DNA from: Candidatus Poribacteria bacterium
GTDB lineage: Bacteria; Poribacteria; WGA-4E; WGA-3G
NCBI GenBank assembly: GCA_965242965.1
Contig: OZ251518.1
Location: 5,184,001-5,248,000 of the forward strand
Reading direction: 5' to 3'
DNA: 64,000 bases
Shown here: in pieces, positions 237 through 62,700 of the stretch
Position numbering within the stretch: the first letter of the stretch is position 1
How the letters are laid out: every line of letters starts with the position of its first letter
Made by a program: the position numbers and the translations under genes
The notes under the pieces: model-generated
What the model was told of the DNA's origin: nothing
The model's input: only the letters and a program-made list of their open reading frames with translations
Databases searched by the model: none

Positions 237-474
237 AGGGTGTTTCATAAATCCGTGTCGGCGTGCCATCCCGGTCTCGAATTCATCGTAGGGCGAGGGC
301 CTGTCCCTCGCCATCGTGCGTGCCCGCGCACCCCAACGCTCGCGGGGGAAACCCGCTCGGATGCACGTGTGGTATCCGAGGGCCCCCGCGCTACGGGCAG
401 AGAAAAGCCCTACGGGAAAATCGAGACCGGGAGGTCTCTCCTACCGGGAAAACATCAATATATGAAACACCCTC
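237..474. mobile_element. TIR-bounded REP mosaic element E1 (MITE-like)
   Basis: AGGGTGTTTCATA at 237 and TATGAAACACCCTC at 461-474 enclose GTAG-led hairpins. Confidence 0.8.
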
Positions 475-502
475 ACTTAGATTCGCGTCCACGTGGCATT
501 CA

Positions 503-1747
503 TCACTTGAACGCATCCAACAGAGAAACCATCTCCCCTTGAATTATTTCCTCTACAAACGGTTCCAACGCCAACCGATACGGCCCACTCAGCGCATGGT
601 TGCGCGGGCCCGCCTCGTAGCCGCCCCGCAAGCCCAATTCATAAGCACGCTGCGTCGCAACGTAGACTTCACTGCCGTTGGTGTAGCCGAAGACGAAGGT
701 GTGTCCGAACGGCGAATGTTCATCGGCGAACAACTGATATTCCGCGAAGAGTTCATGCGGGAAAGAAAGAAGACAGAGCGCATCGCCGACAGCAAAGGCA
801 CTCATCGGAAACGGCAAAGTCCGCTTTTCGCCGCTTTTGGCGATGCCTAACAGCGCGACGTAACGTTCGTCATCAGGAAATTCGGCGATGAGCTGCTCGC
901 ACTCGGCAACCGAAGGTGGGGAACGAAACGGTAACTTCAGGTGAACGGAACGCGCTTTGAGCGCGGCAGATGGAATCTCTTCTGCTGTCTTTAACGCTTG
1001 CGCTGTTGCAAAGGCAAGGGCAAACCCAGCGACATCGCACGCGCTGAAACCGCCGCGCAACGGATAGCCGTTGATATCCGCCGCGCACCCCTGCGCGAAC
1101 ATTAAAACGGTGTCAGGTTTCAAATCCGCACCGATGAAATTGCGCAGATGATTGACTGCGTAACCGGGATAATCGGCACCCATCTCCTCGCTAGCCCAGT
1201 GGACAATCACGGGATGCGCCGCATGCGAAAATAGCACTGCAATGAACTGCCCGTTCGCATCGTCCACGCCTAACACGTCAACCCACGGCACAACCGCTCC
1301 TTCGGGATTCGGTGCCATCGTGATGTAACCGTCATCGTTCATCAGTCGACGGTTGTAGCCAATCTGCACCGGGGCGCGTCCGGCGCGTAGTGTCGCGGGT
1401 TCAAGTGCCGCCACTGCATCCGATACCAGTTTGGCAAGGCAGTCTGCCAGCCACGCCTCAGACTCTTCGGTTATCCAGCGTCCATCAACGCCGGGCGCGT
1501 TGTGCGTATGACTACAGTTGATGACGATGTGCTCGGGTGGGATGTCTGTGGCACGGTAGATAGCGTCTAGCAATACCTGATTGTAGTCAAGCGGAAATTG
1601 TCCGAAGTCTGCCGTGACGATGGCGAGTTGTTTTTCGGCATCGGCGAGCACCAGCGCGCGGGCATAGAGTTCGGCGTAGACATCGGGCTTGTCCTTGATT
1701 TGGGTTATGGGAGTTTCGGCGGCACCTGCCGTTAACGTGGTGTTCAT
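503..1747 (-). CDS. Neutral/alkaline ceramidase-like hydrolase family protein
   Basis: Motifs SHTHNAP, NRR, HAAHPV, ADYPG, QGCAADIN and GYE. Start trimmed to MNTTL, which has GGAG upstream; the ORF-track extension is REP sequence. Confidence 0.7.
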   Translation of the reverse strand: MNTTLTAGAAETPITQIKDKPDVYAELYARALVLADAEKQLAIVTADFGQFPLDYNQVLLDAIYRATDIPPEHIVINCSHTHNAPGVDGRWITEESEAWLADCLAKLVSDAVAALEPATLRAGRAPVQIGYNRRLMNDDGYITMAPNPEGAVVPWVDVLGVDDANGQFIAVLFSHAAHPVIVHWASEEMGADYPGYAVNHLRNFIGADLKPDTVLMFAQGCAADINGYPLRGGFSACDVAGFALAFATAQALKTAEEIPSAALKARSVHLKLPFRSPPSVAECEQLIAEFPDDERYVALLGIAKSGEKRTLPFPMSAFAVGDALCLLSFPHELFAEYQLFADEHSPFGHTFVFGYTNGSEVYVATQRAYELGLRGGYEAGPRNHALSGPYRLALEPFVEEIIQGEMVSLLDAFK

Positions 1748-1761
1748 GGGGTTCTCCTGTC

Positions 1762-2100
1762 GGTTTGCGGCGTGGCGAGGGACAGGCCCTCGCCCTACGA
1801 TGTCGGTTAGATCAGGGTGTTTCATAACCCCGTTTCGGTATTTATTCTGCCTTGGAGGGAGGGCGAATACCGGAAGGCATTGAGCCCATCTCTGTAGTTC
1901 GGGAGCGCCTGATCCCGAACGGGTCAGGATCAGGCGATCCTGACCTACAGGGGTGATGCGGTCTGACAGTCAAACGATGGCGAGGGACAGGCCCTCGCCC
2001 TACGGTGTCAGTTCGGTTGGTTGGCGAGGGACAGGCCCTCGCCCTACGATGGCGGTGTGGTTTGCGGCGTGGCGAGGGACAGGCCCTCGCCCTACGGCGG
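1762..2100. mobile_element. REP mosaic E2 with left TIR only (1814), flanked by a 38-bp REP-containing direct repeat
   Basis: AGGGTGTTTCATAACCCCGTTTCGG at 1814; GGTTTGCGGCGTGGCGAGGGACAGGCCCTCGCCCTACG at 1762-1799 and 2059-2096. Confidence 0.75.
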
Positions 2101-2119
2101 AGGTGCGGTAACGCGTTGC

Positions 2120-3178
2120 TCATGTCAAATCAGCGAGCTGCGGCATCACCTCATTCTGGAGCAAATCCATTGAATGCACCCACTGCTCCTTCGGCTCCCA
2201 CTCGTGTCCCATCGTGAGGAGCACGCCAAAACCACCGACTTCCTCATAGAGTTCGCGGAGGCGGTCCGCGACATGCTCAGGACTGCCCACAATCCACAGC
2301 GTATCCAACAGATTTTCCAGACACGCTTCCACGTCGGGAATGCTCGCGTCTTGCTTGAATTTCTCCCATCCGAATAGGCGGAACCAGTAATCCCGAAAAT
2401 CGCGGCCGAGGGTGCCTTCAAGTGCCTCTTTGCGCGCCTGCTCAGTGGTATCGGCGACGTAGACCTCGCGGGCGATGCGCCACGTAGAACGAGACGGCGA
2501 AAGCCCTGTCTTTGCCGCACCTTCTTCAACTGCGTCCCAATGCGTTTTGATAACGGAGACTGGGGCGAGGTTGATACTCATCGGAATCCAGCCGCGCTCG
2601 CCTGCCAAGATAAGCGTATCCGATTTAGCAGAAGAGCCGGCCACCGCAATCGGCGGGTGCGGTTTCTGATACGGCTTCATGTGGATGCTGACGATGCCCG
2701 TGCGCGGTTCGGGGATTTTAAACTCCCAGAAATCGCTTTTGTAGTGCCCGGGCTCGGGGTCCTCCCAGATTTTGAGGACAGCGTCAATTCCCTCGCGTGT
2801 CGCGCGGCGTCTATCGCCATCTGCCATGAACATCTCCGCGTCGCTCGGCGTGGAACTGGAACCGACACCCCAGTGGAAGCGTCCGTGTGCGAGATGGTCC
2901 AACTGCGCGATGCGATGTGCCACAACAGCAGGGTTGTGTATCGGCATACAGGTAATCCCGGTGCCGAAGACGATGTTTTCTGTCATCGCCACTGCTTTCG
3001 CGATGAAGAGATCTGGGGAGGGGATATTCTCCCACGTGAAGGTAAAATGCTCACCGATGTAAGCTTCCTTGTAGCCCATCCGGTCGAGCGTCACCATCTG
3101 CGCCATATCATCGTCCAGCGTTTTCGTGGTGTCGCTACCGGGTGGATGCAACGGCATCGTGAAAAAACCGAGTTCCAT
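2120..3178 (-). CDS. LLM-class flavin-dependent oxidoreductase (luciferase-like monooxygenase)
   Basis: MELGFFTMPLHPP start, GEH, HNPAVVAHRIAQLDHLAHGR, PYQKPHPPI and IVGSP motifs; AGAGGAG RBS. Confidence 0.85.
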   Translation of the reverse strand: MELGFFTMPLHPPGSDTTKTLDDDMAQMVTLDRMGYKEAYIGEHFTFTWENIPSPDLFIAKAVAMTENIVFGTGITCMPIHNPAVVAHRIAQLDHLAHGRFHWGVGSSSTPSDAEMFMADGDRRRATREGIDAVLKIWEDPEPGHYKSDFWEFKIPEPRTGIVSIHMKPYQKPHPPIAVAGSSAKSDTLILAGERGWIPMSINLAPVSVIKTHWDAVEEGAAKTGLSPSRSTWRIAREVYVADTTEQARKEALEGTLGRDFRDYWFRLFGWEKFKQDASIPDVEACLENLLDTLWIVGSPEHVADRLRELYEEVGGFGVLLTMGHEWEPKEQWVHSMDLLQNEVMPQLADLT

Positions 3179-3306
3179 GAAAGTGCTCCTCTTGTCAGCG
3201 CGCTTATTAAAAAAACGTGACAATCCTGGGCGAAATGTGTTATTATATATACGCGTATCTTGTTAAGAAATTATCACAAACGCAAATATTTTACAAGGAG
3301 AATTTG

Positions 3307-4491
3307 ATGAAACTTAAACTTTTCGCCTTAATGGCACTCGTTTTTCTCACTGTTTTGTCCGGATGCGAGCGGATAAGAACGGTGGTTGTCCCCAATGATA
3401 CCGAAGCACCGATGGCGGATGCAACGCTAAAAATCGGTGTAATCCAGCCATCAAACATCTTCTCCACCTTTAGCCAAGGTGCGGAAACGGCGCGCGCCCA
3501 GATTAATGAAAAAGGCGGCGTGCTCGGCATGCAGGTGGAGTTTATCACGCGGGATAACCAACCCGTGGCGACTGCACCGCCAACGCCGGAGGCAAGCGCA
3601 AGTGCGGCGACTGAACTCATTGAAATGGAGAACGTCTTCGCGCTCCTCGGTCCAGTCTACTCTACCAATACTGTCGACGTGGGCCCAATCGCGCAGGAAG
3701 CACAGCGGCTCTTGCTGCCCGGTTCAAGCGGTTCGCACGTACCAGAGAGCGGGAATTACGTCTTCCTCATCACCGTGCCAAACGCCTTCCAAGGCAGTGT
3801 CATGGCGAAATTCGCGATGGATGCCGATGAACTCGGTGCTAAAACGGCGGCGACAATTCATCAGCACGAAGATGTTTACTCCGATGATCTCGTGCAAGCG
3901 TTCCAAACCGCCTTCAAAGAGATGGGCGGCGAAATTGTCAGCAGTAGCACCTATACCGTCGGTGATACGACGTTTAGTGAGTTGCTGACAGAAATTAGCG
4001 AGGCAAATCCGGACGTTATTTTCTGTCCGAGTTTCCTCCCCGAAGTGCCGTTGCTCATCAATGAGGCACGGCAAAAGGGCATCAACGCGCCGTTCCTCGG
4101 CGGTAGTGCTTGGGATGACAGAGAACGGTTTCTCAGCGTTTTAGACGATAACACCGTTTTAGATGGGAGTTACTATCCCACGAACTTCTCTGTTGCAACG
4201 CAGGATGCCGATGTGCAAGAATTTGTGCAGGGATATACGGCACTCTTTGAGAGTCCGCCTGATGGCATCGCTGCGTCTGGTTACGATGCAATGCGGCTCT
4301 TAGCATTAGCGATAGAGACAGCGGGTTCGCTGGAGGCGGCTGCAGTTCGCGATGCCTTCGCTGCAGGCAGCGGTTACAGAGGTGCCACAATGATTTCGCA
4401 TTACACCGAACAGCGGCACCCTGTCAAGAGTCTCGCCATTCAGACATACCGCGAGGGACAGGTAGAACTCTACAAAATCGTGGAGCCGTAG
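3307..4491 (+). CDS. LivJ/LivK-type ABC transporter substrate-binding lipoprotein
   Basis: Signal peptide with lipobox LSGC; KIGV, INEKGGVLG and GYDAM motifs of type I periplasmic binding proteins. Confidence 0.85.
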   Translation: MKLKLFALMALVFLTVLSGCERIRTVVVPNDTEAPMADATLKIGVIQPSNIFSTFSQGAETARAQINEKGGVLGMQVEFITRDNQPVATAPPTPEASASAATELIEMENVFALLGPVYSTNTVDVGPIAQEAQRLLLPGSSGSHVPESGNYVFLITVPNAFQGSVMAKFAMDADELGAKTAATIHQHEDVYSDDLVQAFQTAFKEMGGEIVSSSTYTVGDTTFSELLTEISEANPDVIFCPSFLPEVPLLINEARQKGINAPFLGGSAWDDRERFLSVLDDNTVLDGSYYPTNFSVATQDADVQEFVQGYTALFESPPDGIAASGYDAMRLLALAIETAGSLEAAAVRDAFAAGSGYRGATMISHYTEQRHPVKSLAIQTYREGQVELYKIVEP

Positions 4492-4586
4492 TCTAGCTGT
4501 TTCGACTGTATGGGCGGCTTTCTGTATCCGTCCGAGCCGCCCATTTTTAGAGAGGGAGATTGGCCCATCTTTGGAGGGAAATTGGT

Positions 4587-5621: not shown

Positions 5622-5641
5622 TGTGTCACGGATACCTAATT

Positions 5642-6183
5642 GAGGGTGTTTCATATCTCGATATCTTCCCGGTAGGAGAGACCTCCTGGTCTCGATGTTC
5701 CCGTAGCGCGGGGGCCTGTCCCCCGCGATGGCTCAAGAACCGTTTTTTTTATCGTAGCGCGGGGGCCTGTCCCCCGCGATCTCCATAGTCAAGTGTTAGC
5801 GTTTTAGGTCCTATGGACCTTAGGGATAGCGAGGGACAGGCCCTCGCCCTACGGTGGATGGGGGCGATTTCTTAGTCATGCCCGTAGCGCGGGGGCCTGT
5901 CCCCCGCGCGCTCTCAATCGCTGCGGAAAACGCCCGCAACCCAGAGACCCCGGATGTTTGCTGCTCAGCCCGGTGCATGGCGAGGGACAGGCCCTCGCCC
6001 TACGGTGAAAGCGGCACTCAAGCATGGCGAGGGAAACCCTCTCGCATGCGCGTGTGGCATGCGAGGGCCCAAGCCCTACGTGAAGGAAAGGCGTTTTTTT
6101 CACGGTAGCGCGGGGCCCTCGGATGCCACACGCGCATCCGAGCGGGTTTCACCGCGACGTTGAGCGATTTAGGAAACACCCTC
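5642..6183. mobile_element. TIR-bounded REP mosaic element E3
   Basis: GAGGGTGTTTCATA at 5642; CGACGTTGAGCGATTTAGGAAACACCCTC ending at 6183; about 8 internal hairpins. Confidence 0.85.
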
Positions 6184-6208
6184 ATTCGGCACAAGGAGTA
6201 TCACTATT

Positions 6209-7156: not shown

Positions 7157-7162
7157 TTTGTT

Positions 7163-7412
7163 GAGGGTGTTTCATAACTCCGTTTCGGCAGTTATCCCCC
7201 TTGGGGAGCGCGCTTCGGGCCCACCTCTGTAGTTTGTGATCGCCTAATCACAAACGGGTCAGGATCAGGCGATCCTGAACTACAGGGGGGATGCGGTCTG
7301 CTAGCAAAACGCGTGGCGAGGGACAGGCCCTCGCCCTACGTGAAGGTGAGGCGTTTTTTATCGTAGCACGTGGTCTGTCCCCGCGACGTTGAGCGAAATA
7401 TGAAACATCCTC
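7163..7412. mobile_element. TIR-bounded REP mosaic element E4
   Basis: GAGGGTGTTTCATAACTCCGTTTCGG ... CGACGTTGAGCGAAATATGAAACATCCTC. Confidence 0.85.
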
Positions 7413-14871: not shown

Positions 14872-15425
14872 GAGGGTGTTTCATAACTCAAGAAACTGTC
14901 CGGTTACCGTAGCGCGGGGGACAGGCCCCCGCGAGCGTCCCGTAGGAGAGACCGCCCGGTCTCAATGCAACACTCTAAACCTTATTAAGGTCCTACGGAC
15001 CTTGATAGGGTGAAGCACGTGTTTCTATAGACATTTAGGTCCTACGGACCTAAAAGAGCGGTTCGGTGGACCGCAGCCTGGCGAGGGGAACCCTCTCGCA
15101 TGCGCGTGTGGCATGCGAGGGCCCTCGCCCTACGGTGAAAGGGGGCCGTTCTGCGGCCAAGAAACCGTCCGGTTACCGTAGCGCGGGGGCCTGTCCCCCG
15201 CGATCTCCATCGTCACGATGAGTGTTTCCCCTTCTGTAGTTCGGGAGCGCCCGCTCCCGAACGGGTCAGGATCAGGCGATCCTGAACTACAGCGGTGAGG
15301 CGGTCTGCCAGCCAAACGCATGGCGAGGGACAGGTTTTCCCACCGCCCTACGTGAAGAGTCGGCGTTTTTTACCGTAGCGCGGGGCATGTCACCGTTAAC
15401 GTTGAGCGATTTATGAAACACCCTC
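14872..15425. mobile_element. TIR-bounded REP mosaic element E5, flanked by AATTAATT on both sides
   Basis: Perfect 14-bp TIRs; AATTAATT at 14864-14871 and 15426-15433. Confidence 0.9.
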
Positions 15426-15500
15426 AATTAATTTGACAAATTTCGTTTTTATGTGGTATCATTTAAATGTAGACGAATTTTCCCACAAAAGGAGAACGAT

Positions 15501-16748
15501 ATGCTGAGAGAGGATTTAGCGATTGTCCCAATCGTTAGGGAAGCCACCCGCGCGCAAAGTGAGACCGTAGAGAGCGTTATCACCCGTTGGAATAGCGGGC
15601 GTATCGTCATTCCGGATTACCAGCGCGACGCAGAGCAGTGGGATCACCGGAAAGAATCCCTCTTCATTGAATCGTTGTTGAACAATCTTACTACACCGGC
15701 GTTCTTTTTTTCGGAAAACCACGAAACCGGTTCTATAGAGGTAGTTGACGGCCAACAACGGCTGAGCACCATCCTGAAATATGCGAAGGACCAGCTGCGT
15801 TTAATGGGCAATGGGGCTATTAACTATTTTGCCCCGCAAAACGTCCACTATAGCGGGAAAAATTTTTCGGAACTACCGAGGGCGTTCCAAAACGTCTTTA
15901 ACGACTATCCGCTCACGATTATTTACCTCCCGCCGAGCCTAGAGCTTTCAACGAAATTGGAAATCTTCCGGCGCATCAACGAAGGTGGAACGCCGCTCAC
16001 CGCGCACGATATCCGGCTCTCTTACTATAGCAAATCTAAGTGCGTTTATTTCATCCGCCTCGCCGGACTTTACGCAGAAACACCGGCTGCTCAGCGTATG
16101 GTAGCCGCTGCCGCGAAAAAGGAGGTTGCCAACCCGTGGAAACAATATCCTGACACGTGGGACCTCTGGAAAGCATGGTGGGAAGGTAAAGAACTCGCCA
16201 AAGGGCAAACTCCCTCGGCGATGATTCTCTGGTACCTCGTGTTTGGGCACAGAGAAAAGTTGCATAGCCTCATTTCCTCTCCGAATTCCATGAAGCATCT
16301 CCCGCTTGTGTTTCATGGTTCAACAGAAGAGGCACTTGACATCTATTGCGCGCAGTTGCAATACACCGACGATACAAAAGGTGGAACCCCGGTCTTCCCG
16401 ACTTACGGGAACGGGCTTGAAGCCGAATTCCAGAACTTCGTGAAGTGGATCGGCGCAATCCTCCAAAGCGGACTCCCCGGACTCAGTGTGGATAAATACA
16501 AACAAATGGCGTTGTTCATCGGAGCTGCAGTTGAATTGGGACTGGATCCGGCACAGTTGAACGATGGGACATGGGATGCAATCGCAGAATTTATACAAAC
16601 ACCGCGCTTGGCCGGAGAAAAGTGGCTTGCTGAAGAAGGAGGATATCCAGAATCAAGGGGCCGCTGGAAAGGCGAACGCGGACAAAAGACGCAATGTGAT
16701 ATGGCGAAACTCCTTTTATCACGAATTGTGGCGGAGTACTCATCATGA
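15501..16748 (+). CDS. DUF262 (GmrSD/ParB-like) domain protein
   Basis: IPDYQR, SLFIESLL, VVDGQQRL and IFRRINEGGTPL motifs. Confidence 0.88.
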   Translation: MLREDLAIVPIVREATRAQSETVESVITRWNSGRIVIPDYQRDAEQWDHRKESLFIESLLNNLTTPAFFFSENHETGSIEVVDGQQRLSTILKYAKDQLRLMGNGAINYFAPQNVHYSGKNFSELPRAFQNVFNDYPLTIIYLPPSLELSTKLEIFRRINEGGTPLTAHDIRLSYYSKSKCVYFIRLAGLYAETPAAQRMVAAAAKKEVANPWKQYPDTWDLWKAWWEGKELAKGQTPSAMILWYLVFGHREKLHSLISSPNSMKHLPLVFHGSTEEALDIYCAQLQYTDDTKGGTPVFPTYGNGLEAEFQNFVKWIGAILQSGLPGLSVDKYKQMALFIGAAVELGLDPAQLNDGTWDAIAEFIQTPRLAGEKWLAEEGGYPESRGRWKGERGQKTQCDMAKLLLSRIVAEYSS

Positions 16749-17236: not shown

Positions 17237-17685
17237 GAGGGGGGGGTCATATTTCGAGGCGTTCGGTAGGAGAGACCTTCTGGTCTCGATTTCTTCCTTG
17301 TAGGCGAGACCTCCTGGTCTCGATGCGCCGGTAGGCATCGGGCCCACCTCTGTAGTTCGGGAGCGCCCGCTCCCGAACAGGTCAGAATCAGGCGATCCTG
17401 ACCTACAGGGTCTGGCGCACGAACGATGGCGAGGGAAACCCGCTCGCATGCGCGTGTGGCATGGCGAGGGACAGGCCCTCGCCCTACGTGAAGGGACGGC
17501 GTTTTTTTTATCGTAGCGCGGGGGCCTGTCCCCCGCGAACGTTGGAGTGCACGAACGATGGCGAGGGACAGGCCCTCGCCCTACGTGAGGGGAGGCGTTT
17601 TTTATCGTAGCGCGGGGCCTCGGATGCCACACGCACACCCGAGCGGGTTTCCCCCGCGACGTTGAGCGATTTATGAAACACCCTG
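17237..17685. mobile_element. TIR-bounded REP mosaic element E6 (degenerate left TIR)
   Basis: GAGGGGGGGGTCATA on the left; CGACGTTGAGCGATTTATGAAACACCCTG on the right. Confidence 0.8.
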
Positions 17686-29369: not shown

Positions 29370-30022
29370 CCTTCATCGTAGGGCCTGGGCCCTCGCATGC
29401 CACGCGTGCATGCGAGCGGGTTCCCCTCGCCATGCGTTTTGCTGTCAGCCTGCATCACCTCTGTAGGTCAGGAGCGCCTGCTCCTGACCTGTTTGTGATC
29501 AGGCGATCACAAACTACAGAGGTGGGCCCAATGCCTTCCAGTAGGAGAGACCTCCTGGTCTCGATGCAATAGGACGGCGCGCCTCACCCCTGTAGGTCAG
29601 GATCGCCTGATCCTGATCCGTTTGTGATCAGGCGATCACAAACTACAGAGAGGGGACCTAAAACGCCATCTCTTGACGATGGAGATCGCGGGGGACAGGC
29701 CCCCGCGCTACGGGAAAAAACGCTTCCCCTTCACCGTAGGGCGAGGGCCTGTCCCTCGCCATCGTTCGGGCCCTCCAACGCTCGCGGGGGACAGGCCCCG
29801 CGCTACGGGAAAAAACGCCCCTTCACCGTAGGGCGAGGGCCTGTCCCTCGCCATCGTTCGGGCCCTCCAACGCTCGCGGGGGACAGGCCCCCGCACTACG
29901 GGCACATCGAGACCAGAGGTATCTCCTACGGGGATGCATCGAGACCAGGAGGTCTCTCCTACCGGGGAGAATTGAGACCCGAGGTCTCTCCTACCGAACG
30001 CATCGAAATATGAAATACCCTC
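29370..30022. mobile_element. REP mosaic E7 with right TIR only
   Basis: About 14 hairpins; TATGAAATACCCTC at 30009-30022. Confidence 0.8.
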
Positions 30023-31964: not shown

Positions 31965-32164
31965 TCTGAGCACAACCAGGTCAGGAGCAGGCACTCCTGA
32001 ACTATAGGCGGGGCGCGCTTTACCCCTGTAGTGCGGGTGCGCCTGCACCCGCCCGGGTCAGGCCGCATCGAGACCGGGAGGTCTCGCCTACCGGCAATTC
32101 TCCATTTTCCCCTGTCTCACGGAGCCCTGTCACCGCGATGTTGAGCGATTTATGAAACACCCTC
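31965..32164. mobile_element. Degenerate REP mosaic E8 with right TIR
   Basis: GATGTTGAGCGATTTATGAAACACCCTC ending at 32164. Confidence 0.75.
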
Positions 32165-33634: not shown

Positions 33635-33917
33635 GAGGATGTTTCATAAGTCTGTTTCGGAATCTATCCCGCCTTGGGAGCGGGCGAATACCGGAAGGCA
33701 TCGGGCCTCCATCTGTAGTTCGGGATCGCCTGATCCCGAACGGGTCCAAAGTTCGCTGCCTCTAGTCAAGACCGTTCTGTTTCATCTGTAGTTCGGGATC
33801 GCCTGATCCCGAACGGGTCAGGATCAGGCGATCCTGACCTACAGGGGTGACGCGGTCTGCCAGCCAAACGCATGGCGAGGGAAACCCGCGACGTTGAGCG
33901 ATTTATGAAACACCGTC
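33635..33917. mobile_element. TIR-bounded REP mosaic element E9
   Basis: GAGGATGTTTCATA ... CGACGTTGAGCGATTTATGAAACACCGTC. Confidence 0.85.
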
Positions 33918-36279: not shown

Positions 36280-36866
36280 ATAGGAGAGACCTCCCGGTCT
36301 CGATGCATCCCCGTAGGAGAGACCTCCTGGTCTCGATGTGCCCGTAGCGCGGGGGCCCTCGGATGCCATCGTGAAGTTATGTTTTTAGGTCCTTTAGGTC
36401 CTACATGTCTATAGCAGCCCGTGTCGTTACGTTGTCAAGGTCCTTTAGGTCCTTAATAAAAAAACACGCCGCATGTCAAAACCTATTAAGGACCTAAAGG
36501 ACCTTAGGATTCTTCGCAATCACGCGTGCTATAGACATTAAGGTCTTACAGACCTTAGGCATGGCGAGGGACAGGCCCTCGCCCTACGGTGAGGGGGCGT
36601 TTTTTTTCGTAGCGCGGGGGCCTGTCCCCCGCGATCGTTGGATTCCGCGTGCACGCACGATGGCGAGGGGAACCCGCTCGCATGCGCGTATGGCATGCGA
36701 GGGCCCTCGCCCTACGATGAAGGGGGGATTTCTGCCGCCCTATTGCATCGAGACCGGGAGGTCTATCCTACGGGGAAGCCATCGAGACCGGGAGGTCTCT
36801 CCTACCGGGACATCGCTCGTATCAAGACCGGGAGGGCGCGCCGACACGGATTTATGAAACCCCCTC
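36280..36866. mobile_element. REP mosaic E10 with right TIR
   Basis: GCCGACACGGATTTATGAAACCCCCTC at the right end, matching the reverse complement of the E1 left end. Confidence 0.8.
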
Positions 36867-38108: not shown

Positions 38109-38608
38109 GAGGATGTTTCATAACTCCGTTTTGATATTTATCCCGAGGGTGTTTCATAACTCAAGAAACCGTCCGGTTACCGTAGCGCGGGGGCCTGTCC
38201 CCCGCGAGCGTCCCGTAGGAGAGACCGCCCGGTCTCGATGCAACACTCTAACCCTTATTAAGGGCCTACGGACCTTGATACGGTGAAGCACGTTTTTCTA
38301 TAGACATTTTAGTCCTACGGACCTAAAAGAGGTTTTTGATAGACCTCAGCATGGCGAGGGACAGGCCCTCGCCCTACGGTGAAAGGAGGCCGTTCTGCGG
38401 CTAAGTAGTTTGTGATCGCCTGATCACAAACGGGTCAAGATCGGGCGATCTTGACCTATAGGGCCTGGGGCGCGCGAATGATGGCGAGGGGAACCCTCTC
38501 GCATGCGCGGATGGCATGCGAGGGCCCAAGCCCTACGGTGAAGTGCCGTTTTTTTCCCGTATCGCGGGGCCTGATAGCGCGACGTTGAGCCATTTATGAA
38601 ACACCCTC
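38109..38608. mobile_element. TIR-bounded REP mosaic element E11 with two nested left ends
   Basis: GAGGATGTTTCATA at 38109, GAGGGTGTTTCATA at 38145, and TATGAAACACCCTC at 38595-38608. Confidence 0.85.
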
Positions 38609-42766: not shown

Positions 42767-43097
42767 GAGGGTGTTTCATAACTCCGTTTCGGTATTTATT
42801 CCCTATTGGGGAAGGACGAATACCAAAAGCCATCGGGCCCACCTTTGTAGTTCGGGATCGCCTGATCCCGAACGGGTCAGGATCAGGCGATCCTGACCTA
42901 CAGGGGTGAGGCGGTCTGACACCAAAACGCATGGCGAGGGCCTGTCCCTCGCCATGTTGGATTTCGCGGGTTACGGTATTGCATCGAGACCGGGAGGTCT
43001 CTCCTACGCCAGTCCTTCCCCATTTTGCGATCAGGCGATCGCAAACTACAGAGAGGGCGGAGACTTCGCGGGAGGACAGGCCCCCGCGCTACGGTAA
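42767..43097. mobile_element. REP mosaic E12 with left TIR only
   Basis: GAGGGTGTTTCATAACTCCGTTTCGG at 42767. Confidence 0.8.
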
Positions 43098-43907: not shown

Positions 43908-44204
43908 GAGAGGGTTTCATAACTCCATTTCGGTATTTATTCCCCCTTGGGAACTCGCGAATACCAGAAGCCATCGGGCCCACCTCTGTAGTTCGGGATC
44001 GCCAGATCCCGAACAGGTCAGGATCAGGCGATCCTGACCTACAGGGGTGAGGCGTTCTGATACCAAAACGGTGGCGAGGGGAACCCTCTTCCATGCGCGT
44101 GTGGCATGCGAGGGACAGGCCCTCGCCCTACGTGAAGGGGCGGCGTTTTTTTCCGCATCGCGGGGCATATCACCGCGACGTTGAGCGATATATGAAACCC
44201 CCTC
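43908..44204. mobile_element. TIR-bounded REP mosaic element E13
   Basis: GAGAGGGTTTCATA ... CGACGTTGAGCGATATATGAAACCCCCTC. Confidence 0.85.
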
Positions 44205-47270: not shown

Positions 47271-50200
47271 ATGATGAAAGCAATGAATCTTCATAAAAAC
47301 TTTATTATCAACGCCGCCTTGTGCTGCCTGATTCTCGGGGTTGTGATGTGGGGAAGCACACCGCAGGTTGCTGCGCAGAATCTGCAGGATGTTATCAGAG
47401 ATGACAACCTTGAAATTGTAATCAACAAGGCACTCGGACGCTCGGCTCCGTACAATCAGCCGATCAGTTGGTCAGATCTGTCAAATATGAGCTTCACCGA
47501 ACTGAATGCGAGCGGTTACGGTAAAGCCGAAGGGGAAAAAATCTCCGACCTTAGAGGCCTAGGATACGCAGTCTGGCTGACGGACCTGGACCTGAGCCAC
47601 AACGATATTACGGTCCCCCTGTTGTCAAGTATAACATTACAGTTGGCAAAATTGAACCTGAGCAACAACAAGATTACTAACCTCTCTGAGTTATCAGGTA
47701 TAACAACACTGAAAGAGCTGAACCTGAGCAATAACAGGATTACCGACATCTCTCAGTTGTCAGGTTTAACAAACTTGACGCATCTGAGTTTGGCGAACAA
47801 TTCGCTTGAGGATACGCCGACTAGGAATAATGGGCTTGATAATCAGCCTAATACTGAGGACGACTATTTCGAGGGCCCCACTGATGCACAAGCTAAGTTG
47901 AGGCATTTAAGCCGTTTTAACAATCTGGAAGTGTTAAACGTCTCGCACAACTCCATCCTCAACATCAATGTGGTGCAAGGTTTGACTGCACTGACAGGTT
48001 TGGCCATTGGCAACAACCCAATCGTGGATTTCACGCCGATTTTTGACCACGTCTCCGAAGGGGTTACTGTCTACACTACGTTTGGGACAGTCGCCAACAT
48101 TCCCGATTGGGAACTCAGAAATGCCTTAAAAGCCGCTGCCTACTCACAAGGTATCACAAGTGGTTTCGTCAGTAAGTTGGAACAGGCGGCTTCAGATTGG
48201 CTCAATGCCCGTGGTGCCCGTGACGGCTACATAACGCTCTCTGTAGAGCTGTTGAGAGGTATAATTGAACGTGAGCCTGTGACAGTCCAGATTTTGGAGC
48301 CGCTCCGCGAGTTGGATGCCTCATCTGGCAGCGGCTACGCTGTCTCGGACTTAACCGGACTGGATACCTACTGTCGGAACTTAGAGAAGTTAAACCTTGA
48401 GGGGGTCGTGTTTGAAACTGTTGAGACCTCCTATGAGATTATTGGTAGATTGACGCAATTGAAAACGTTAGATCTTTACCAGCATGTCTTCTTCGGCGAT
48501 GGGTACTGGCACGAACACCTCCATCACCTCGGAAATTTGAAGGCGTTAAGGTGGTTAGATCTTCGAGGGACTACCCTCCGGGATATCACGGCACTTGCAG
48601 GATTGACTGCGCTAGAGAGACTCGATCTTAGGTCCAACCATATTAGCACGCTTGAGCCCCTTGAAAATTTGACGAATTTACAGATGCTGTATCTCCATCC
48701 GCAGAATCAGGTGGATTCGTATTCTACGCCTCTGCAGCAGCCCCGGGAACTCACCGGTTTAGAGTTCCAGACACTTCGGACGTTGGCGGATCGAATCCAG
48801 CACCCATGGGTTACCGATACGGTTATCGTGAAGTCTTATAAAATCGCGTTGGAACCCGCAGTAGCGTATGGTGCCGGGTCGAATATTATTATTGAGGTAA
48901 CGTTCCAGGGCTTAATCAGTCCCGATCCAGATTTTACAGGCGATCCGAATCCTTCTCAAACAAGACCGTATCTCCTCCTAGATTTCGGCAATGAGGTTGG
49001 CGGCATAGCCGAATGGATTGCGCACACTTATGTCGCGGAAGAGAATGCTACAAAGGTCGAGTTCGCCTATCCTGTCCATTCAGAGGATAGGGAGGGTGAA
49101 GTGATTATTAAGGGTCTGGAGTTGAAGATACCTGAATCGGGGGCACTGGTTCACTGGAGACCTCTTGACAACTCTATATTCCCGATGGCGGAACAGCCGA
49201 TAATCATTAATGTTGACGATCAGAATCCTAAGCTAGTAACTATAGCGACGATCCCTGCAACCGATGGCGATGTCGTCGAGAACCAGGCCTACCCGATTAG
49301 CAGTCTGAACCGCTATAGCTTCTCATACGATCTGCCGCTGCGATCGGGGGCACCTATTGTCCAGACACAGCCAACGGTGCAAATGCGCCGTGCCGGTGGG
49401 GGAACAGGGGCAGTAACCGGTGAAAAGTTTGATGTGGAAATTACCTTTAGCGGGCCCTTGGACGAACCTAGTGCTGCCGCATTGGCTAGCAAAATTTCCT
49501 TAGAGGAGAATGTCAAGGGGGGGGGTCTCTATCAGTGCCCCAAAGCGTCCGGGCGTGCCGAAAGTTTATGAACCGGAGACGTGGACGCTGTCTGTCTTCG
49601 TAGCCGCGGGCGTGAGTGGCAATGTCACCGTGACGCTAGATTTGACAGGTTTGACAGATGCGGCGATTCCGGGCAACCCGGTTGCTTCAGCAGGTTCCAC
49701 GCTGTCTCTCACCGTGCCGGTGAATCGTCCGGGTGAGAGTGTGCCGGAAACGGAGCCGGTTGTCTTCGGCAGTGCCAACAATTCCCTGGAATTCTCGATT
49801 GTCTTCGAGGAAGATGGTGTGACTTACGAGGGGACAGCGAAGCCGTATATTACGATTTACTTGGGCGAGCGTGTTCAGGCGAATGAGCGTCATGCCGTGT
49901 GGGCGCGTGCGGAAGATGCGAATTCGACGAGAGTGACGTTCGAGTATCAGGTCGGTGCGGTTGACTTTGCTTCGGAGGTATCGTTAAAATCCGAAGAGGG
50001 TGTTGCGATTCCGAAGGGCACCACCTTTGTGAGTGAGTCTGTCCGTATCGTAGGGAATGATCCGCCGGCTCGTGCGGCGGGTGAGGCACCTCCTGCTACC
50101 ACGGCGGCACCGTCTCAACCGGCTGCGGGTTCGCCGCAGATTACCGTCGGTGGGAATAAGCGCGTCTCCTTGACGACTGCGTTTGCGCGGCCCACCGTGC

Positions 50201-51984
50201 TAAAACGTAGCGTTGAGATTCAGGGTATCGTGTATTTGCCGCCGACAGAAGAAGAGGAAACAAAAGCGGATGCTTCGGGTGTGCCGCGTTCGCCGGTCGT
50301 TTTCAACGAGCTCGGCAATGGCAGTGGTGATTCCAACGACTGGTTGGAGTTCCGCAATGTCACGGGTTCGGCAGTCTCTTTGAAAGACTGGGAGCTCAGC
50401 GTCGTGCAGAATGGAGAGAAGAAGGATACGTCGCTGATCGTGTTTTCGGATGTCAGTGTCCCGGCGAATGGTTTGTTGCTAATAACCAACAGCGATCCGA
50501 CGGCAGATGGCAATCTTCTCGCCGGTGGTGATAACGCCGCTACCTCGGCGGTGGAGAGCAAAGGTTCTTCGCATCTGTATTACGCCAATTCCGGGCTTGC
50601 GTTGCCGGATGATGGGAAGTTCCTGTTGATTCTTCGGAAATCGAAGGAGAAACTCGGTAAGAATGAGGCGTTCGTGGATGTCGCCGGTGGCGGTGGCAGT
50701 GGCACGGATGCGTTTATCCGCGATCAGACCGGCGAGTATGATACGCATGTCTGGCCCTTGCAAGTGCGTGAGGCACCGGGTGGCGATACGGAAGATGCGC
50801 TTGGTTCGGGCAAAGTCTGGCAGCGCGCGAAAGCGGATATTGTGGGTTACCACAAGGATGCTTGGGCAGAGGCGGCGTTTACGGGTATCGGCTATGACAG
50901 GGCTGTCTCGAAGTCCGCGGCGACTGCTGGCACGCCGGGCTATCCGAATGGTGCGTTGAAAACGGAGGCATCCACGCCGCAGGGGAGTATCACCATCAGC
51001 GAGGTGATGTTTGACTCGGGTGGTGGCAAACTGCCGCAGTGGGTGGAGTTGTATAACAAATCCAAAACCGAGGCAATCAATCTGAATCGGTGGAGATTGG
51101 AGATTCAGAATGTCAATTCCGAGGATTTAGTCGGTCGCCCGATTGTGACGTTGACGTTGGGTGAGAAAATCATTCAGCCGAATCAGACGTTGCTGATTGT
51201 ATCGGGTGATGCGCGTGCGTCCTCGTCGGCGCGTTTACCGGCGGATCGGGTTTACAACCTCTTCAAACTGCATGAGAAGAATCTGCGTATCAAGAAGCCG
51301 CAGGATACGTTCCTGAGTGCTGTCGGTTTCTATCTGAAGCTGTCCGATCGGAATGGGACAAAGATAGACGAAGTCGGCAATACGGATGGGAATCGTCGCA
51401 CCGATGATGCGCCGTCGTGGGCATTACCGGTGAGTCCCGAGGATGGCGTGCGGAGTTCGTTAATCCGTCGTTATACCAAAGGGACATCGGTTGCGGAGGA
51501 TGGCATGGCGCGCGGGGGTTGGGTGTTGGCATCGAACGTCAAGCGTTTCGTGGCTAACAAGGAGCTCCACTGGGGCCATGCTGAGGATATCGGCACCCCG
51601 GGGTATCGTGCCGGCGGTCCGCTGCCCGTTGAGTTATCGAGTTTCTCGGTGACGCGTCTGGAATCCGGTGCGGTTGTGTTGACTTGGACGACAGAGTCCG
51701 AGGTCGACAATGCTGGATTTAACCTGCGTCGGAGTGAGACGCGCGACAGTGGCTTTACGTTATTGAATCCTGCGCTGATCGCCGGTGCTGGCACTACGGG
51801 TGAACGTCAGGCGTATACGTTTACAGATACGTCGGCAAAGCCGGGTGTTGAGTATTTCTATCAGATCGAGGAAGTTTCGTTTGACGGCGGTCCTGTGCCG
51901 TTAGTGACGCGGTTTTTGCCGGGTCCTGTCTCGGCTTCCAATCGGATGTTAACGACGTTCGGTGCTGTTAAGTCGCGGGATTAA
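47271..51984 (+). pseudogene. Large secreted protein (internalin-like LRRs, beta-rich middle region, two lamin-tail-like domains, PLPVELSSF-type C-terminal domain) split by a frameshift at a G9 tract (49517-49525)
   Basis: Signal peptide; LxxLxLxxNxIxDLxxL repeats; VVFNE...DWLEFRN and ITISEVMF...QWVELYN...GTPG. G8 would fuse ORFs 47271-49571 and 49510-51984. Confidence 0.75.
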
Positions 51985-52008
51985 GTTTCCGTTTGGTTAT
52001 ATGTTCGT

Positions 52009-52050
52009 GCGCGGGTGGCGGCCTTGTGGTTGCCGCCCGCGCTTTTTTTT
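52009..52050 (+). terminator. Rho-independent terminator
   Basis: GCGCGGGTGGCGGCC-TTGT-GGTTGCCGCCCGCGC hairpin followed by T8. Confidence 0.85.
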
Positions 52051-52082
52051 GTTGCGTTCGCGTTCGCAAACGCCCCCGATTA

Positions 52083-53833: not shown

Positions 53834-53849
53834 TTTGGAGGGAAATTGC

Positions 53850-56259: not shown

Positions 56260-56326
56260 AGTTTTTTATGATATTGTAGGGCGTGGTTCTGTCCGCTGCC
56301 ACGCGCCGGTCTTCTCATTAATGGAG

Positions 56327-56652: not shown

Positions 56653-56710
56653 ATCCCAGAGAAACATGAAACAACCAGAAATGTCAATCAACGCTTTGCA
56701 ACAATCCAAA

Positions 56711-57532: not shown

Positions 57533-57594
57533 ACATAACAAAAACAGAGTGATTCAGTTCTCCACGGAGACTGAATAGTCCTGAGTCTTGACAA

Positions 57595-57731
57595 CTGTAG
57601 GGCAGGATCGCCTGATCCTGACCCCGTTCGAGATCGGGCGATCTCGAACTACAGAGGTGGGCCCAATGCCTTTCGGTATTCGCCCTCCCGCAAGGGGGAT
57701 AACTACCGAAACGGAGTTATGAAACACCCGC
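57595..57731. mobile_element. Truncated REP mosaic E15 (E4-type end in reverse orientation)
   Basis: CCGAAACGGAGTTATGAAACACCCGC ending at 57731. Confidence 0.75.
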
Positions 57732-57802
57732 AATATAAACGTTAGAGTCTCGGTGATGTCCACCGAACGCATTGCGAAAAACAAAAAAGCGAAAAACAAA
57801 AA

Positions 57803-58063
57803 ATGCCAACAGAAGAAGCCAGTCCCCGAACGCTCATGGTTATCGTCTGCATCATCGGTCTGATTTTTGCGATTGTGATGGTAATCCTCTTTTTCAACGC
57901 CGCTCCAGCACGCTCAAACATAGAGGTGCATCGGCAATCGGCGGAGGATGCCGCATGCCTCAAATGCCATTTGAAAGGCGACGAAAAGTCACCGACGATG
58001 CCGCATCTTGACCTGGGCAATTGCAACTTGTGCCACGGGCTATCAAAAGAGCCGCCGCGCTAA
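57803..58063 (+). CDS. Small membrane-anchored dihaem c-type cytochrome
   Basis: N-terminal TM helix; CLKCH and CNLCH motifs. Confidence 0.7.
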   Translation: MPTEEASPRTLMVIVCIIGLIFAIVMVILFFNAAPARSNIEVHRQSAEDAACLKCHLKGDEKSPTMPHLDLGNCNLCHGLSKEPPR

Positions 58064-58927: not shown

Positions 58928-58954
58928 ATTTTCTATATTGCGTCGCCTTCAATT

Positions 58955-59893
58955 TTATTTCACCTTGACGATGAGGAGCTCGTGGGATTGCTTGACATAC
59001 CCTGTGCCATTCTTGATGCGTTTTTTGCCGATACGGGTTTCGCCTTGCCCCAACGTGTATTGCCATTCCACCGTGAGGATTCGGAAATCGGCGTACCACC
59101 GTCGGATCGTCTCGCAGTCGTTATAGGAGAGGACGAAACCGCCGTTGTGCGCGTGAAGCAGGTCGCGTAGCACCTCGTGCTTAAAACCGTTATGATGCAC
59201 CGGAAAATTCCGCTGCGGATAAATCCCCTTGAACATCTTCCCCTCATCAAGGTAATAAGGCGGATCGCAGTAGAGGAACTCTCCCGGGTGCCGAGGAATA
59301 GTTTCCTCGAAACTTCCGTGTTGCACAGATAACAGAGGACATTGGAAATTGCGCACCGTCTTTACCGCGCGGGCATATTTCCCCGGCGACTCATAAATTT
59401 TCGACATCCAACCGAGGAAACCGGGTCCGTAGGAAAGATTGTGGTTAAACCAGTAGTGCGCCGCCAATTCTAGCGGATTCTCGATGCGGTTTTCGTTTTT
59501 CCAATGCGCTTTGAGTCTGTGCTTAATCTCAGCGTATTGTGCTTTCGTGGGGTGCCACTGTGCCAGCCTCTCCGCAAGTTGTTCGCCTGACGTGAGTTGC
59601 ACCTGCCAATAGTTGACAAGGATATTGAAGATGTCATACGCTTGCACTTGCATGCTGAGTTCTGCAGCACAGGCAATTTCGACCGCGCCGCCGCCGATAA
59701 ACGGGGAGACCAGCTTCTCTAAACCATCGGGCATTTGTTCCACGACGTGCCCCACGCCAAGACTTTTCCCACCGGCATAACGCAGCGGAAGCCCTTTGTA
59801 ACGCGCGTATTTATACGTGCCTTGACTTCTCAGCGATTCTAAAAATAGCACTCTCAAAGAGGTGCCAAAAAGGTCTGGGTAGTTCTCTTGCAT
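58955..59893 (-). CDS. Dam-like (D12 class) DNA adenine methyltransferase, apparently orphan
   Basis: PLRYAGGKS, SPFIGGG, YCDPPY, LSYND. Confidence 0.88.
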   Translation of the reverse strand: MQENYPDLFGTSLRVLFLESLRSQGTYKYARYKGLPLRYAGGKSLGVGHVVEQMPDGLEKLVSPFIGGGAVEIACAAELSMQVQAYDIFNILVNYWQVQLTSGEQLAERLAQWHPTKAQYAEIKHRLKAHWKNENRIENPLELAAHYWFNHNLSYGPGFLGWMSKIYESPGKYARAVKTVRNFQCPLLSVQHGSFEETIPRHPGEFLYCDPPYYLDEGKMFKGIYPQRNFPVHHNGFKHEVLRDLLHAHNGGFVLSYNDCETIRRWYADFRILTVEWQYTLGQGETRIGKKRIKNGTGYVKQSHELLIVKVK

Positions 59894-59946
59894 CTTGGAT
59901 TCCTATGCTTGGCGCGTTGTCTTGACGCTGTCTCGATTTTTCTCTA

Positions 59947-60430
59947 TCGCAGGGCGGGGGCCTGTCCCCCGCAGGCAGTAATCGAGACCAGGAGGTCTCT
60001 CCTACGGCCTTCTCTATCGTAGGGCGGGGGCCTGTCCCCCGCCATGCTCCGAGTAATCGAGACCGGGAGGTCTCTCCTACGGCCTTCTGTACCGTAGGGC
60101 GGGGGCCTGTCCCCCGCCATGCTCCGAGTTGCCTAGTGATGACGATCGCGAGGGACAGGCCCTCGCGCTACGGTAGATGAGAATTATGATAAACCGCGAG
60201 GGACAGGCCAGTAGGAGAGACCTCCTGGTCTCGATGCGGTTGCTCGCGAGGGACAGGCCCTCGCGCTACGGCAGATGAGAATTATGATAAACGATCGCGA
60301 GGGACAGGCCCTCGCGCTACGGTAGATGACAGTCATGATAAACGATCGCGAGGGACAGGCCCTCGCGCTACGGAAAATGAGAATTATGATAAACGATCGC
60401 GAGGGACAGGCCCTCGCGCTACGGTAGACG
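59947..60430. repeat. REP tandem arrays (B'/C units, then ~51-bp A' units)
   Basis: CGCGAGGGACAGGCCCTCGCGCTACGG five times with near-identical linkers. Confidence 0.85.
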
Positions 60431-60444
60431 AGAATTATTAGACA

Positions 60445-61575
60445 CTACGCCGGGTCTTCATCGGCCGAATCATTGTGGCGAAAGATTCTGTCCCAGAAAC
60501 CACCCTCCTCCGCTTCAGTAGTTTCCCCCAAGGACACTGCAAATTCTTCCAACTTTTTGCGTTGCGTTTCGGTGAGGTGCCGCGGCGTTTCAATTTCGAT
60601 GCTGACAACTAAGTCGCCGGCAGAGGAGCGTTTATAGTGCGGGATGCCTTTACCCGGAATCCGCAGTTGCGCGCCGTATTGCGTGCCAACCGGAATCCGT
60701 AACTCTTCGGTGCCATCAATACCCTCCACCTTAATTTTCCCTCCTAACGCCGCTTGGACGAAGGAGATGCGCGCGGAGGTAACCAGATCGTTTCCTACCC
60801 GTTGGAAGCGCGTGTGTGGCAGCACGTTGATAATCACGAACAGGTCACCCGGGGGGGCACCGTGGGCACCTGCTTCGCCTTCGCCGCGCAACTGATATTT
60901 GAAACCGCTCTCAACCCCTTTGTCAACGTGCAGCGGAATATCGCGCTTGACGCGGATAAGTCCCTGTCCGTTACAAGGCTGACAAGGTTCGGTAATGATT
61001 TCACCTTCGCCGTGGCAACGCGGACAGGTGCGGGACATCGTGAAAAACCCCTGCGAGTGCGTGACCTGTCCTCTGCCATAGCATTCGGGGCATCTGTCAA
61101 TGCTTGAACCTTTCTTCGCGCCGGTGCCCTTACACGTAGGACAAGCTTCGATTCGCGGTACCGGCAGCGTCACCTCTTTGCCGGCGATGACATCTTCAAG
61201 CGTGATCTCGAGGTTGTATTGCAAGCTGCGTCCGCGCTTCGGCGCGCGCTGCGCTCCGCCGAATCCACCGAGAATCTCGCCGAAAACATCTCCGAAAATA
61301 TCATCAAGGTTGACACCAAAGCCGCCGTAATTGCCGCCGACACTTCCCTCCACGCCGGCATGTCCGAACTGGTTGTAACGGCCCCGTTTTTCAGGGTTGC
61401 TGAGCACCTCGTATGCTTCAGTGGCTTCCTTGAATTTATCTTCAGCCGCTTTGTCACCCGGATTCTTATCTGGATGATATTTAATCGCGAGTTTCCGGTA
61501 AGCCTTCTTAATCTCGTTATCATCTGCACTGCGGCTAACAGCCAGAATCTCGTAATAGTCGCGTTTTTGCGTCAT
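60445..61575 (-). CDS. dnaJ: Chaperone DnaJ
   Basis: J-domain HPD, G/F-rich region, four CxxCxGxG repeats. Confidence 0.96.
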   Translation of the reverse strand: MTQKRDYYEILAVSRSADDNEIKKAYRKLAIKYHPDKNPGDKAAEDKFKEATEAYEVLSNPEKRGRYNQFGHAGVEGSVGGNYGGFGVNLDDIFGDVFGEILGGFGGAQRAPKRGRSLQYNLEITLEDVIAGKEVTLPVPRIEACPTCKGTGAKKGSSIDRCPECYGRGQVTHSQGFFTMSRTCPRCHGEGEIITEPCQPCNGQGLIRVKRDIPLHVDKGVESGFKYQLRGEGEAGAHGAPPGDLFVIINVLPHTRFQRVGNDLVTSARISFVQAALGGKIKVEGIDGTEELRIPVGTQYGAQLRIPGKGIPHYKRSSAGDLVVSIEIETPRHLTETQRKKLEEFAVSLGETTEAEEGGFWDRIFRHNDSADEDPA

Positions 61576-61626
61576 GAAAGTTCACCTTCTGTAAAAATAG
61601 GCGATGGCGAGGGAGCGGCCCACGCC

Positions 61627-62346
61627 CTACGTTTCGTCAGTGTCGTTGTCATCGGTTTCAGGCGCAGGTTCTTCCGCCGCTGCGGGGCCCTGAGAGACAA
61701 CAACTTGGGAAGCGCGAAGGACGCGAGCATGCAACTGATACCCGCGCTGATATTCCTCAACAACCTTGCCTTCCGGCACCTCATCCGATGGCATGGCGAG
61801 AATGGCTTGATGCTGACCCGGGTCGAACGTTTCACCGAGTGCTTCAATCGGCGTGAGCCCGTGGATTTTGAGGGCATCGAGCAGCTGCTTCTGAACGAGT
61901 TGCACACCTTCGCTGAAGGTAGCAAATTCGGTGTCGGTATCGGCATCGGTATCGTCAATGTTCACTTTTTCAGCGATGCTTTTAATCGCCGCCTCCAGGC
62001 TATCTAACACGGGGATAAGCCCTTCCAGCAGTGCTTCATTGGCATATTGGAGTTTCCGCTCCGTTTCTGCCGCCACCCGTCTTTTGGCGTTTTCTGCCTC
62101 GGCGGCGGTGCGGAGGAGGCGTTCGCGCTCCGCCTCATATTGCTCGCGCGCCTCTACCGCAACCGCCTCCAACTTCTCGCGATACTCCGATTTGAGCGTA
62201 TTGAGTTCCGCCTCCACGGTTTCAAGCGTTCGTTCTTCCGGTGCCTCGCAAGTCTCCTCTGTCGTTGTCTCCGGGGCATCTTCACACTCCGAAGCCTCTG
62301 GGGTATCAACTACGATTTCTATGGGTATCTCTTTAACGTCAGACAT
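61627..62346 (-). CDS. grpE: Nucleotide exchange factor GrpE
   Basis: LR.AAEAEN.KRR, FDP..HQA, QRGY.L..RVLR.S.V.VS. Confidence 0.94.
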   Translation of the reverse strand: MSDVKEIPIEIVVDTPEASECEDAPETTTEETCEAPEERTLETVEAELNTLKSEYREKLEAVAVEAREQYEAERERLLRTAAEAENAKRRVAAETERKLQYANEALLEGLIPVLDSLEAAIKSIAEKVNIDDTDADTDTEFATFSEGVQLVQKQLLDALKIHGLTPIEALGETFDPGQHQAILAMPSDEVPEGKVVEEYQRGYQLHARVLRASQVVVSQGPAAAEEPAPETDDNDTDET

Positions 62347-62367
62347 TGTCTATCCTTTGTTTAGTTC

Positions 62368-62700
62368 AGGGTGTTTCATAACTCCCCGGTAAGAGAGACC
62401 TCCCGGTCTCAATATCGTCCGCGCAATCCAACGCTCGCGGGGGACAGGCCCCCGCGCTACGGCAAAAACGGCACTTCACCGTAGGGCGAGGGCCTGTCCC
62501 TCGCCAGAGTCCGCGCGCCAGACTCTGTAGGTCAGGATCGCCTGATCCTGACCTGTTTGTGATCAGGCGATCACAAACTACAGAAGCGGAAAAACACAGC
62601 GTGACGATGGACAACGCGGGGGACAGGCCCCCGCGCTACGGTAAAATCGAGACCGGGAGGTCTCTCCTACCGGGAAGACATTGATATATGAAACACCCTC
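62368..62700. mobile_element. TIR-bounded REP mosaic element E16
   Basis: AGGGTGTTTCATA at 62368; TATGAAACACCCTC at 62687-62700. Confidence 0.85.

Follow-up and report, generated by a model that had tools for sequence, protein, structure and literature searches.

What kind of element joins the ends of an insertion sequence (IS) to an interior made of a different class of mobile repeat? The question is raised by a window of 64,000 nucleotides (the whole stretch of DNA analysed here, i.e. C1:5184001-5248000 of the 5.70-Mb assembly G000, which consists of two contigs) from a Candidatus Poribacteria bacterium, whose intergenic spacers hold repeats bounded by a 14-bp terminal inverted repeat (TIR) and filled with arrays of GTAG-headed repetitive extragenic palindromic (REP) hairpins. 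A preliminary description had read them as a two-tier, non-autonomous element in which IS-type ends carry a reshuffled cargo. We propose, with a probability of roughly four in five, that they form a high-copy family of miniature inverted-repeat transposable elements (MITEs) which took its ends from a 1.11-kb IS with a DDE transposase, carries REP arrays as bodies, was orphaned, and has had its interiors changed in place.

With up to two mismatches allowed, the window contains 24 matches to the 14-bp end, against 0.37 expected, and none of 100 shuffled sequences reached this number. The matches form eight convergent pairs of 239-554 bp. A ninth pair, at 17237, is real with a degenerate left end, and six ends are solo; pairs and solo ends together account for the approximately 16 element sites that had been counted before. 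The nine two-ended elements listed there are recovered as well, except that the one placed at 38109 starts with a truncated end and has its intact end at 38145. Across the genome, the end is found 1026 times, while about 31 matches are expected from base composition, and the exact 14-mer 530 times with about 0.035 expected. Of the successive neighbours that face each other (+/-), 298 of 363 are no more than 1000 bp apart, as compared to 23 of 363 of those that point apart (-/+), so that pairing lies far above chance. Up to a distance of 1500 bp, we counted 301 convergent pairs and 423 solo ends; the pairs have a length mode of 250-300 bp and, as expected of MITEs, are small and devoid of a transposase gene.

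The flanks of these pairs carry the signature of transposition. According to a logo of the flanking sequence, the element begins with the first G of the motif and adjoins an AT-rich palindrome, A-n-T-T-A-A-n-T, as its target; the left and right flanks are direct repeats of each other in an 8-bp register and, more weakly, in a 9-bp register. An exact direct repeat of at least 8 bp is present at 98 of the 301 pairs, where 200 random re-pairings of the flanks predict 0.7, a control that speaks against the palindromic target preference as the sole source of the repeats. If one mismatch is tolerated, the number rises to 144 of 301, at a rate that is alike across length classes and combinations of end types. 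The direct repeat noted earlier on both sides of the element at 14872-15425, AATTAATT, is one such duplication. The same 14-bp ends bound a DDE-type IS (see below), so that the earlier assignment of the AT-rich duplications and IS-type TIRs to a DDE element is upheld. A differing case was seen in the congener G001, where a 14-bp direct repeat that is richer in GC and has one mismatch flanks the MITE at C102:14122-14384 (L009 3123-3385), in place of the usual 8-bp AT-rich duplication.

Where do the ends come from? We surveyed 175 genomes of the phylum; most of the family have few copies of the motif, and G045 stood out by a pair of ends 1.1 kb apart. This pair bounds an element of 1111 bp with exact ends and one open reading frame (ORF) of 332 amino acids. 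Among 10 related genomes, both exact 14-mers were found 1107-1112 bp apart around one 332-aa ORF at nine of the 10 loci returned; of these nine IS loci, five show an exact 8-bp duplication and another two a duplication with a single mismatch. The MITEs and the DDE IS thus have ends, duplication length and target preference in common. Full-length copies make up almost all occurrences of the end in G127 and G034 (six and seven pairs, respectively). Homologues of the transposase were detected in 53 of 111 other genomes of the family, namely in 18 of 40 of genus g2, in 35 of 65 of genus g5 and in neither of the two congeners.

The transposase of this parent IS matches the Pfam domain DDE_Tnp_1_3 (PF13612) with 37.4 bits at a cut-off of 27, and the element resembles the IS982 family in its length of about 1.1 kb, its single transposase ORF, its inverted ends, its DDE_Tnp_1_3 domain and its best NCBIfam match. 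However, this match (NF033520) reaches 52.3 bits, far below the family cut-off of 130, and the closest homologues are annotated publicly as 'hypothetical protein' of Candidatus Poribacteria; judged by these comparisons, the parent IS is an unclassified relative of IS982. An origin from the IS5 family, suggested earlier from the look of the ends, is not supported: the NCBIfam IS5 models gave 14.4-14.6 bits at cut-offs of 110-140. IS1595 elements are common in the relatives (26 of 41 genomes searched, G000 included) and were discarded as a parent, since their ends differ from the 14-bp end. A variant of the end with one changed base goes together with a transposase about 62% identical to the parent one (in G087, G079 and G140; e.g. 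L038-L042). It lies at many contig ends of G087, as expected of a multi-copy IS, and G078 has four copies of it spaced 86 bp apart.

No transposase lies in the window, as had been stated, and none is intact in the whole genome. A tblastn search with the parent transposase returned only fragments of 54 and 44 amino acids, which adjoin an exact end at C1:2371733-2371746, and the first 130-138 bp of the IS left end persist as six to seven relics of 70-75% identity. All +/- end pairs 700-12000 bp apart (594 pairs) were screened without finding an autonomous copy, so that the search for a full-length IS with the same TIR succeeded in the related genomes and not in this one. Exact 8-bp flank matches without inner ends occurred among these long pairs at chance level (about 1.4 expected), and we therefore do not claim gene capture for the two pairs inspected, whose 8-bp flanks match and which contain ordinary genes: an ankyrin-like gene at C1:54311-57212 and a restriction-modification-like gene at C1:188873-192792. 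A Pfam search of the genome for ISL3, DDE_Tnp_1, IS256-type and IS1595 transposases gave no match, and a self-comparison for long repeats yielded paralogous gene families and no IS copies. As the genome holds only decayed relics of the IS, its MITE copies are orphans.

Whole units have been inserted at sites that are empty in congeners. We compared the window with G001 and G002, whose genes are about 85% identical to and syntenic with it. The MITE at 33635-33917 is precisely absent from both, the flanks being joined with a single copy of the 9-bp target, and the MITE at 62367-62700 is absent from G002, which has one copy of the 8-bp site. The alignment of orthologous loci that had been proposed as a check thus revealed precise TIR-to-TIR absence at two window loci. 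The exact 14-mer is present 530 times here, five times in G001 and once in G002. A metagenome scan for closer strains returned six loci, all with at most 82% protein identity and unusable for the search for empty sites.

What the units carry are REP hairpins, as the preliminary description had it. We distinguished five GTAG-headed module types, GC-rich palindromes with 547 to 2775 copies each, and a sixth type without the GTAG head with 312 copies. Between 11 and 35% of the module copies lie inside pairs, which cover 2.2% of the genome. Indeed, 86.6% of the interior bases belong to 14-mers that recur at least five times outside the elements, as compared to 10% for random DNA.

Clustering of the 301 copies by megablast resolved 228 architectures. 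The largest class comprises 52 copies of 227-304 bp with a median pairwise identity of 86.5%, and its 266-bp master consensus contains a doublet of REPs and a further double hairpin, always in the same order; the target duplication is retained in 22 of the 52. Because this master, with its fixed order of REPs, recurs at 52 loci, the REPs travelled as MITE cargo. Ten smaller classes have two to six copies each, and 217 of the 301 copies are unique. The sub-terminal types that recur in varied pairings in the window do so across the genome, where heterotypic pairs of ends dominate (C-D 77, B-D 28, B-I 18). D-type ends continue into the right-end sequence of the IS (about 21-23 nt in common) and F-type ends into its left end (a 10-nt word in register), in types G, I and H a REP follows 4-6 nt behind the 14-mer, and type J is a C end that lacks 12 nt. 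All copies have only about 17 bp at each end in common. Many of the long copies correspond to the master with additional copies of its REP doublet, the junctions lying at REP boundaries, and some REPs carry a second hairpin in their loop. Such a REP within the loop of a GTAG REP was observed at 6020-6075, 15085-15135 and 17430-17460 of the window, and the same nested form is found in many copies genome-wide.

We propose the following course of events. The 14-17-bp ends are the TIRs of the 1.11-kb IS with its DDE transposase of type DDE_Tnp_1_3, nearest to IS982. Acting in trans, this transposase would have cut the elements out and pasted them into A-n-T-T-A-A-n-T sites, leaving duplications of 8 bp and sometimes 9 bp; we infer mobilisation in trans because ends, duplication length and target are common to the MITEs and the DDE IS. 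The IS is alive in sister genera; its transposase would later have been lost here, leaving about 300 complete copies and about 420 solo ends as orphan fossils. The bodies are not deletion remnants of the IS; they consist of GTAG-headed REP hairpins that are proper to the genus and form a system apart, with its own REP-associated tyrosine transposase (RAYT). REP arrays that lay between two ends were carried to new loci as cargo, as the 52-locus master and the ten smaller multi-copy architectures show. After insertion, the interiors would have changed in place by variation in the number of REP doublets, by entry of hairpins into REP loops, by swaps and deletions in the sub-terminal regions and by loss of ends.

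Were the interiors changed in place, or were differently composed arrays captured? Two loci are occupied in both G000 and G001, with the same flank and TIR position and largely non-homologous interiors. At C1:~3012258-3012735, the flank and the target agree with those of G001, which has the exact duplication AGTTAATT; the left two thirds of the interior are unrelated to G001, the left end is degenerate in this genome, and a 23-nt indel beside the end sets the two right sub-terminal regions apart. At C1:3015002-3015015, the right flank and end are common to both genomes and the sub-terminal type differs, the left end having been lost in this genome. Because 217 of the 301 architectures are unique and these two shared loci differ in their interiors, the data suggest remodelling in place. 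Of the earlier claim that REP machinery or recombination reshuffles the cargo, the reshuffling is in line with the differing interiors, the junctions at REP boundaries and the two orthologous loci; REP machinery is not singled out as its agent, and among REP-level processes the RAYT, slippage or recombination between copies may have been at work.

Alternatively, REP arrays between two inward-facing ends, belonging to solo ends or to neighbouring elements, could have been mobilised as new composites and then transposed as they were. This would fit well with the finding that only about 17 bp per end are common to all copies and that REPs begin 4-6 nt from the TIR in types G, I and H. It would also fit with the 11 architectures found at two or more loci, with duplications, and with duplications that are retained as often in copies that are long or unique (104 of 217 singletons) as in the master (22 of 52). 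However, capture followed by transposition should leave donor remnants at least, and the 217 unique architectures speak against it, as do the different interiors at two orthologous loci of congeners and the many long copies that are the master with the REP doublet duplicated inside. We regard capture as the main source of the diversity as possible but rather unlikely; it is compatible with the MITE family remodelled in place that we favour and not exclusive of it.

Several points weigh against our proposal. The case for remodelling in place comes from two loci, and G001 is an assembly of 210 contigs whose repeat arrays may be wrongly joined; the differing interiors may also stem from insertions that hit the same consensus site independently. 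The transposase is missing from this genome, which makes the case for mobilisation in trans indirect, and the master copies are only about 86% alike, with no sign of current activity. The elements at 5642, 7163, 14872 and 43908 are missing in the congeners with imprecise sites, because the spacers are too diverged, hold another REP type or lack the neighbouring gene too; the spacers syntenic to the first two measure 37 bp in G002 and 163 bp in G001, and 85 bp in G002, respectively. Finally, of the 301 pairs, 157 lack a duplication even if one mismatch is tolerated, and solo ends number 423; a good share of today's pairs may therefore have arisen by recombination or juxtaposition and not as single insertions. 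A search for degenerate partners of the solo ends and its control gave equally high numbers (167 against 170).

Pushed further, the pairs without duplication and the many solo ends could mean that paired ends are not units at all: solo IS ends and REP arrays would have piled up in a few permissive spacers, in a genome whose spacers are crowded with repeats, and the +/- neighbours would be coincidental. We consider this very improbable. Coincidence would not produce the 298 to 23 excess of +/- over -/+ neighbours within 1 kb, 98 exact duplications that span whole pairs where 0.7 are expected, two pairs that are missing as whole units in congeners, or one full architecture common to 52 loci, and this reading is already contradicted for a third to a half of the pairs or more.

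In contrast to the ends, the bodies belong to a system of this genus. The sole RAYT of the genome scores 120.6 bits on the NCBIfam equivalog NF047646 (cut-off 80) and has arrays of the R3 REP type to its left and right, i.e. the RAYT gene flanked by such REPs that had been proposed as a search target exists, although this one gene stands against at least five REP types. The other Y1 match in the genome is a broken IS605-like element. In that element (L001; G000 C1:3123891-3127127), a TnpB-like ORF of 408 amino acids adjoins the Y1 transposase gene, which is interrupted by two TGA stops. The R1 REP is present in 634 copies in G001 and in 480 in G002 and has no copies in G140, G034 and G045, all three of which carry the IS. 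G140 further holds four MITEs of 202-212 bp that have the same ends and an ordinary, AT-richer body without REPs. Because R1 is missing from the IS-bearing genomes and the G140 MITEs lack REPs, the REP body is restricted to the window's genus. The two systems, IS-type ends and REPs, have separate origins. That the 14-bp end might be just another REP arm, moved like the hairpins by the RAYT (HUH) enzyme, can be dismissed despite its constant position among REPs and the one RAYT in the genome, because the end is rich in A and T, lacks a GTAG head, forms no hairpin arm, makes 8-bp target duplications, unlike HUH single-strand transposition, and is identical to the ends of DDE insertion sequences in genomes without the R1 REP.

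Pack-MITEs of plants are known to carry captured host sequence (gene fragments) between inverted ends in place of transposon sequence. The elements described here are alike in joining inverted ends to captured host DNA and differ in that the cargo is another mobile repeat class. Among bacteria, IS-derived MITEs such as RUP, NEMIS/Correia, ERIC and Nezha are listed in PMC3733652. Like them, our elements are short, non-coding, intergenic and of high copy number, with target duplications and TIRs (15-30 bp in that account) common with an autonomous IS able to move them in trans. They differ in that the body is a host REP hairpin array and not an IS remnant, that 301 copies fall into 228 architectures, and that the parent IS is missing from the genome holding the burst. 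The modules in turn resemble the GTAG REPs, bacterial interspersed mosaic elements (BIMEs) and REP doublets forming hairpins (REPINs) with their RAYT, as presented in PMC3733652, PMC2817692 and PMC3116915: they are GC-rich, GTAG-headed palindromes in hundreds to thousands of copies, often inverted doublets, with one RAYT gene flanked by one module type. Here, however, the arrays lie within DDE-type inverted ends with 8-bp duplications and are copied as whole blocks.

REPs and MITEs are handled as separate classes in these three sources and are usually seen as moved by different enzymes. In the present system, two unrelated kinds of mobile DNA are merged into one element, with REP arrays inside DDE-type ends copied to dozens of loci. 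The literature searched, with subscription journals outside its coverage, contained no description of a REP-filled MITE composite or of Poribacteria MITEs and no work joining IS982, MITE and 'target site duplication'. With the parent IS in sister genera, the transposase lost here and the REP family confined to the genus, the system offers a natural experiment on the interplay of REPs and MITEs and on the decay of orphan MITEs. It accounts for about 2% of the genome and much of the content of its intergenic spacers, and its analysis identifies an IS that is publicly annotated as 'hypothetical protein'. We tentatively speculate that the DDE IS could have served as a second dispersal engine for RAYT-type REPs, since a transposase that needs only about 17 bp per end would make any REP array between two ends mobile, and that REP-driven recombination might have kept rebuilding the MITEs, in a reciprocal coupling of HUH and DDE systems that outlived the transposase.

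Table 1. Elements and ends in the window (positions counted from its first nucleotide).
Feature	Position	Strand	Remarks
Complete MITE, 239 bp	236..474		Left TIR with 1 mismatch; target duplication not recognisable
Complete MITE, 542 bp	5642..6183		B-type and D-type ends, interior of REP modules
Complete MITE, 250 bp	7163..7412		Canonical C-D architecture, i.e. the 52-copy master type
Complete MITE, 554 bp, H-D type	14872..15425		Exact 8-bp target duplication AATTAATT on both sides
Complete MITE, 449 bp	17237..17685		Left TIR degenerate, 4 mismatches
Complete MITE, 283 bp, C-D type	33635..33917		9-bp duplication with one mismatch
Truncated C-type end, 36 bp	38109..38144		Directly abuts the next element at 38145
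Complete H-D MITE, 464 bp	38145..38608		Adjoins the truncated end 38109-38144
Complete MITE, 297 bp, C-D type	43908..44204		
Complete MITE, 334 bp	62367..62700		8-bp duplication with one mismatch (GTTTAGTT / GTTTAATT)
Solo TIR end	1813..1826	+	Adjoins a REP array
Solo TIR end	30009..30022	-	
Solo TIR end, D type	32151..32164	-	Alignment with G001/G002 restarts immediately after
Solo TIR end	36853..36866	-	
Solo TIR end	42767..42780	+	
Solo TIR end	57718..57731	-	

In the spacer of the MITE at 43908-44204, G001 and G002 hold one or two copies of a different hairpin repeat, and the spacer content was therefore replaced, not simply interrupted. The MITE at 14872-15425 adjoins a 431-aa ORF (15453-16748) that is missing from the syntenic site in G001 and G002, where the alignment shows 18 bp between the flanking genes. 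Elsewhere in the window, a stretch of 2.7 kb (49330-52052) has a second copy at G000 C1:4839902-4842619 that is 93.5% identical. Other large-gene families of the genome are present in three to nine copies at 85-93% identity, and one such repeated family consists of a gene of about 1035 amino acids that resembles a restriction-modification enzyme.

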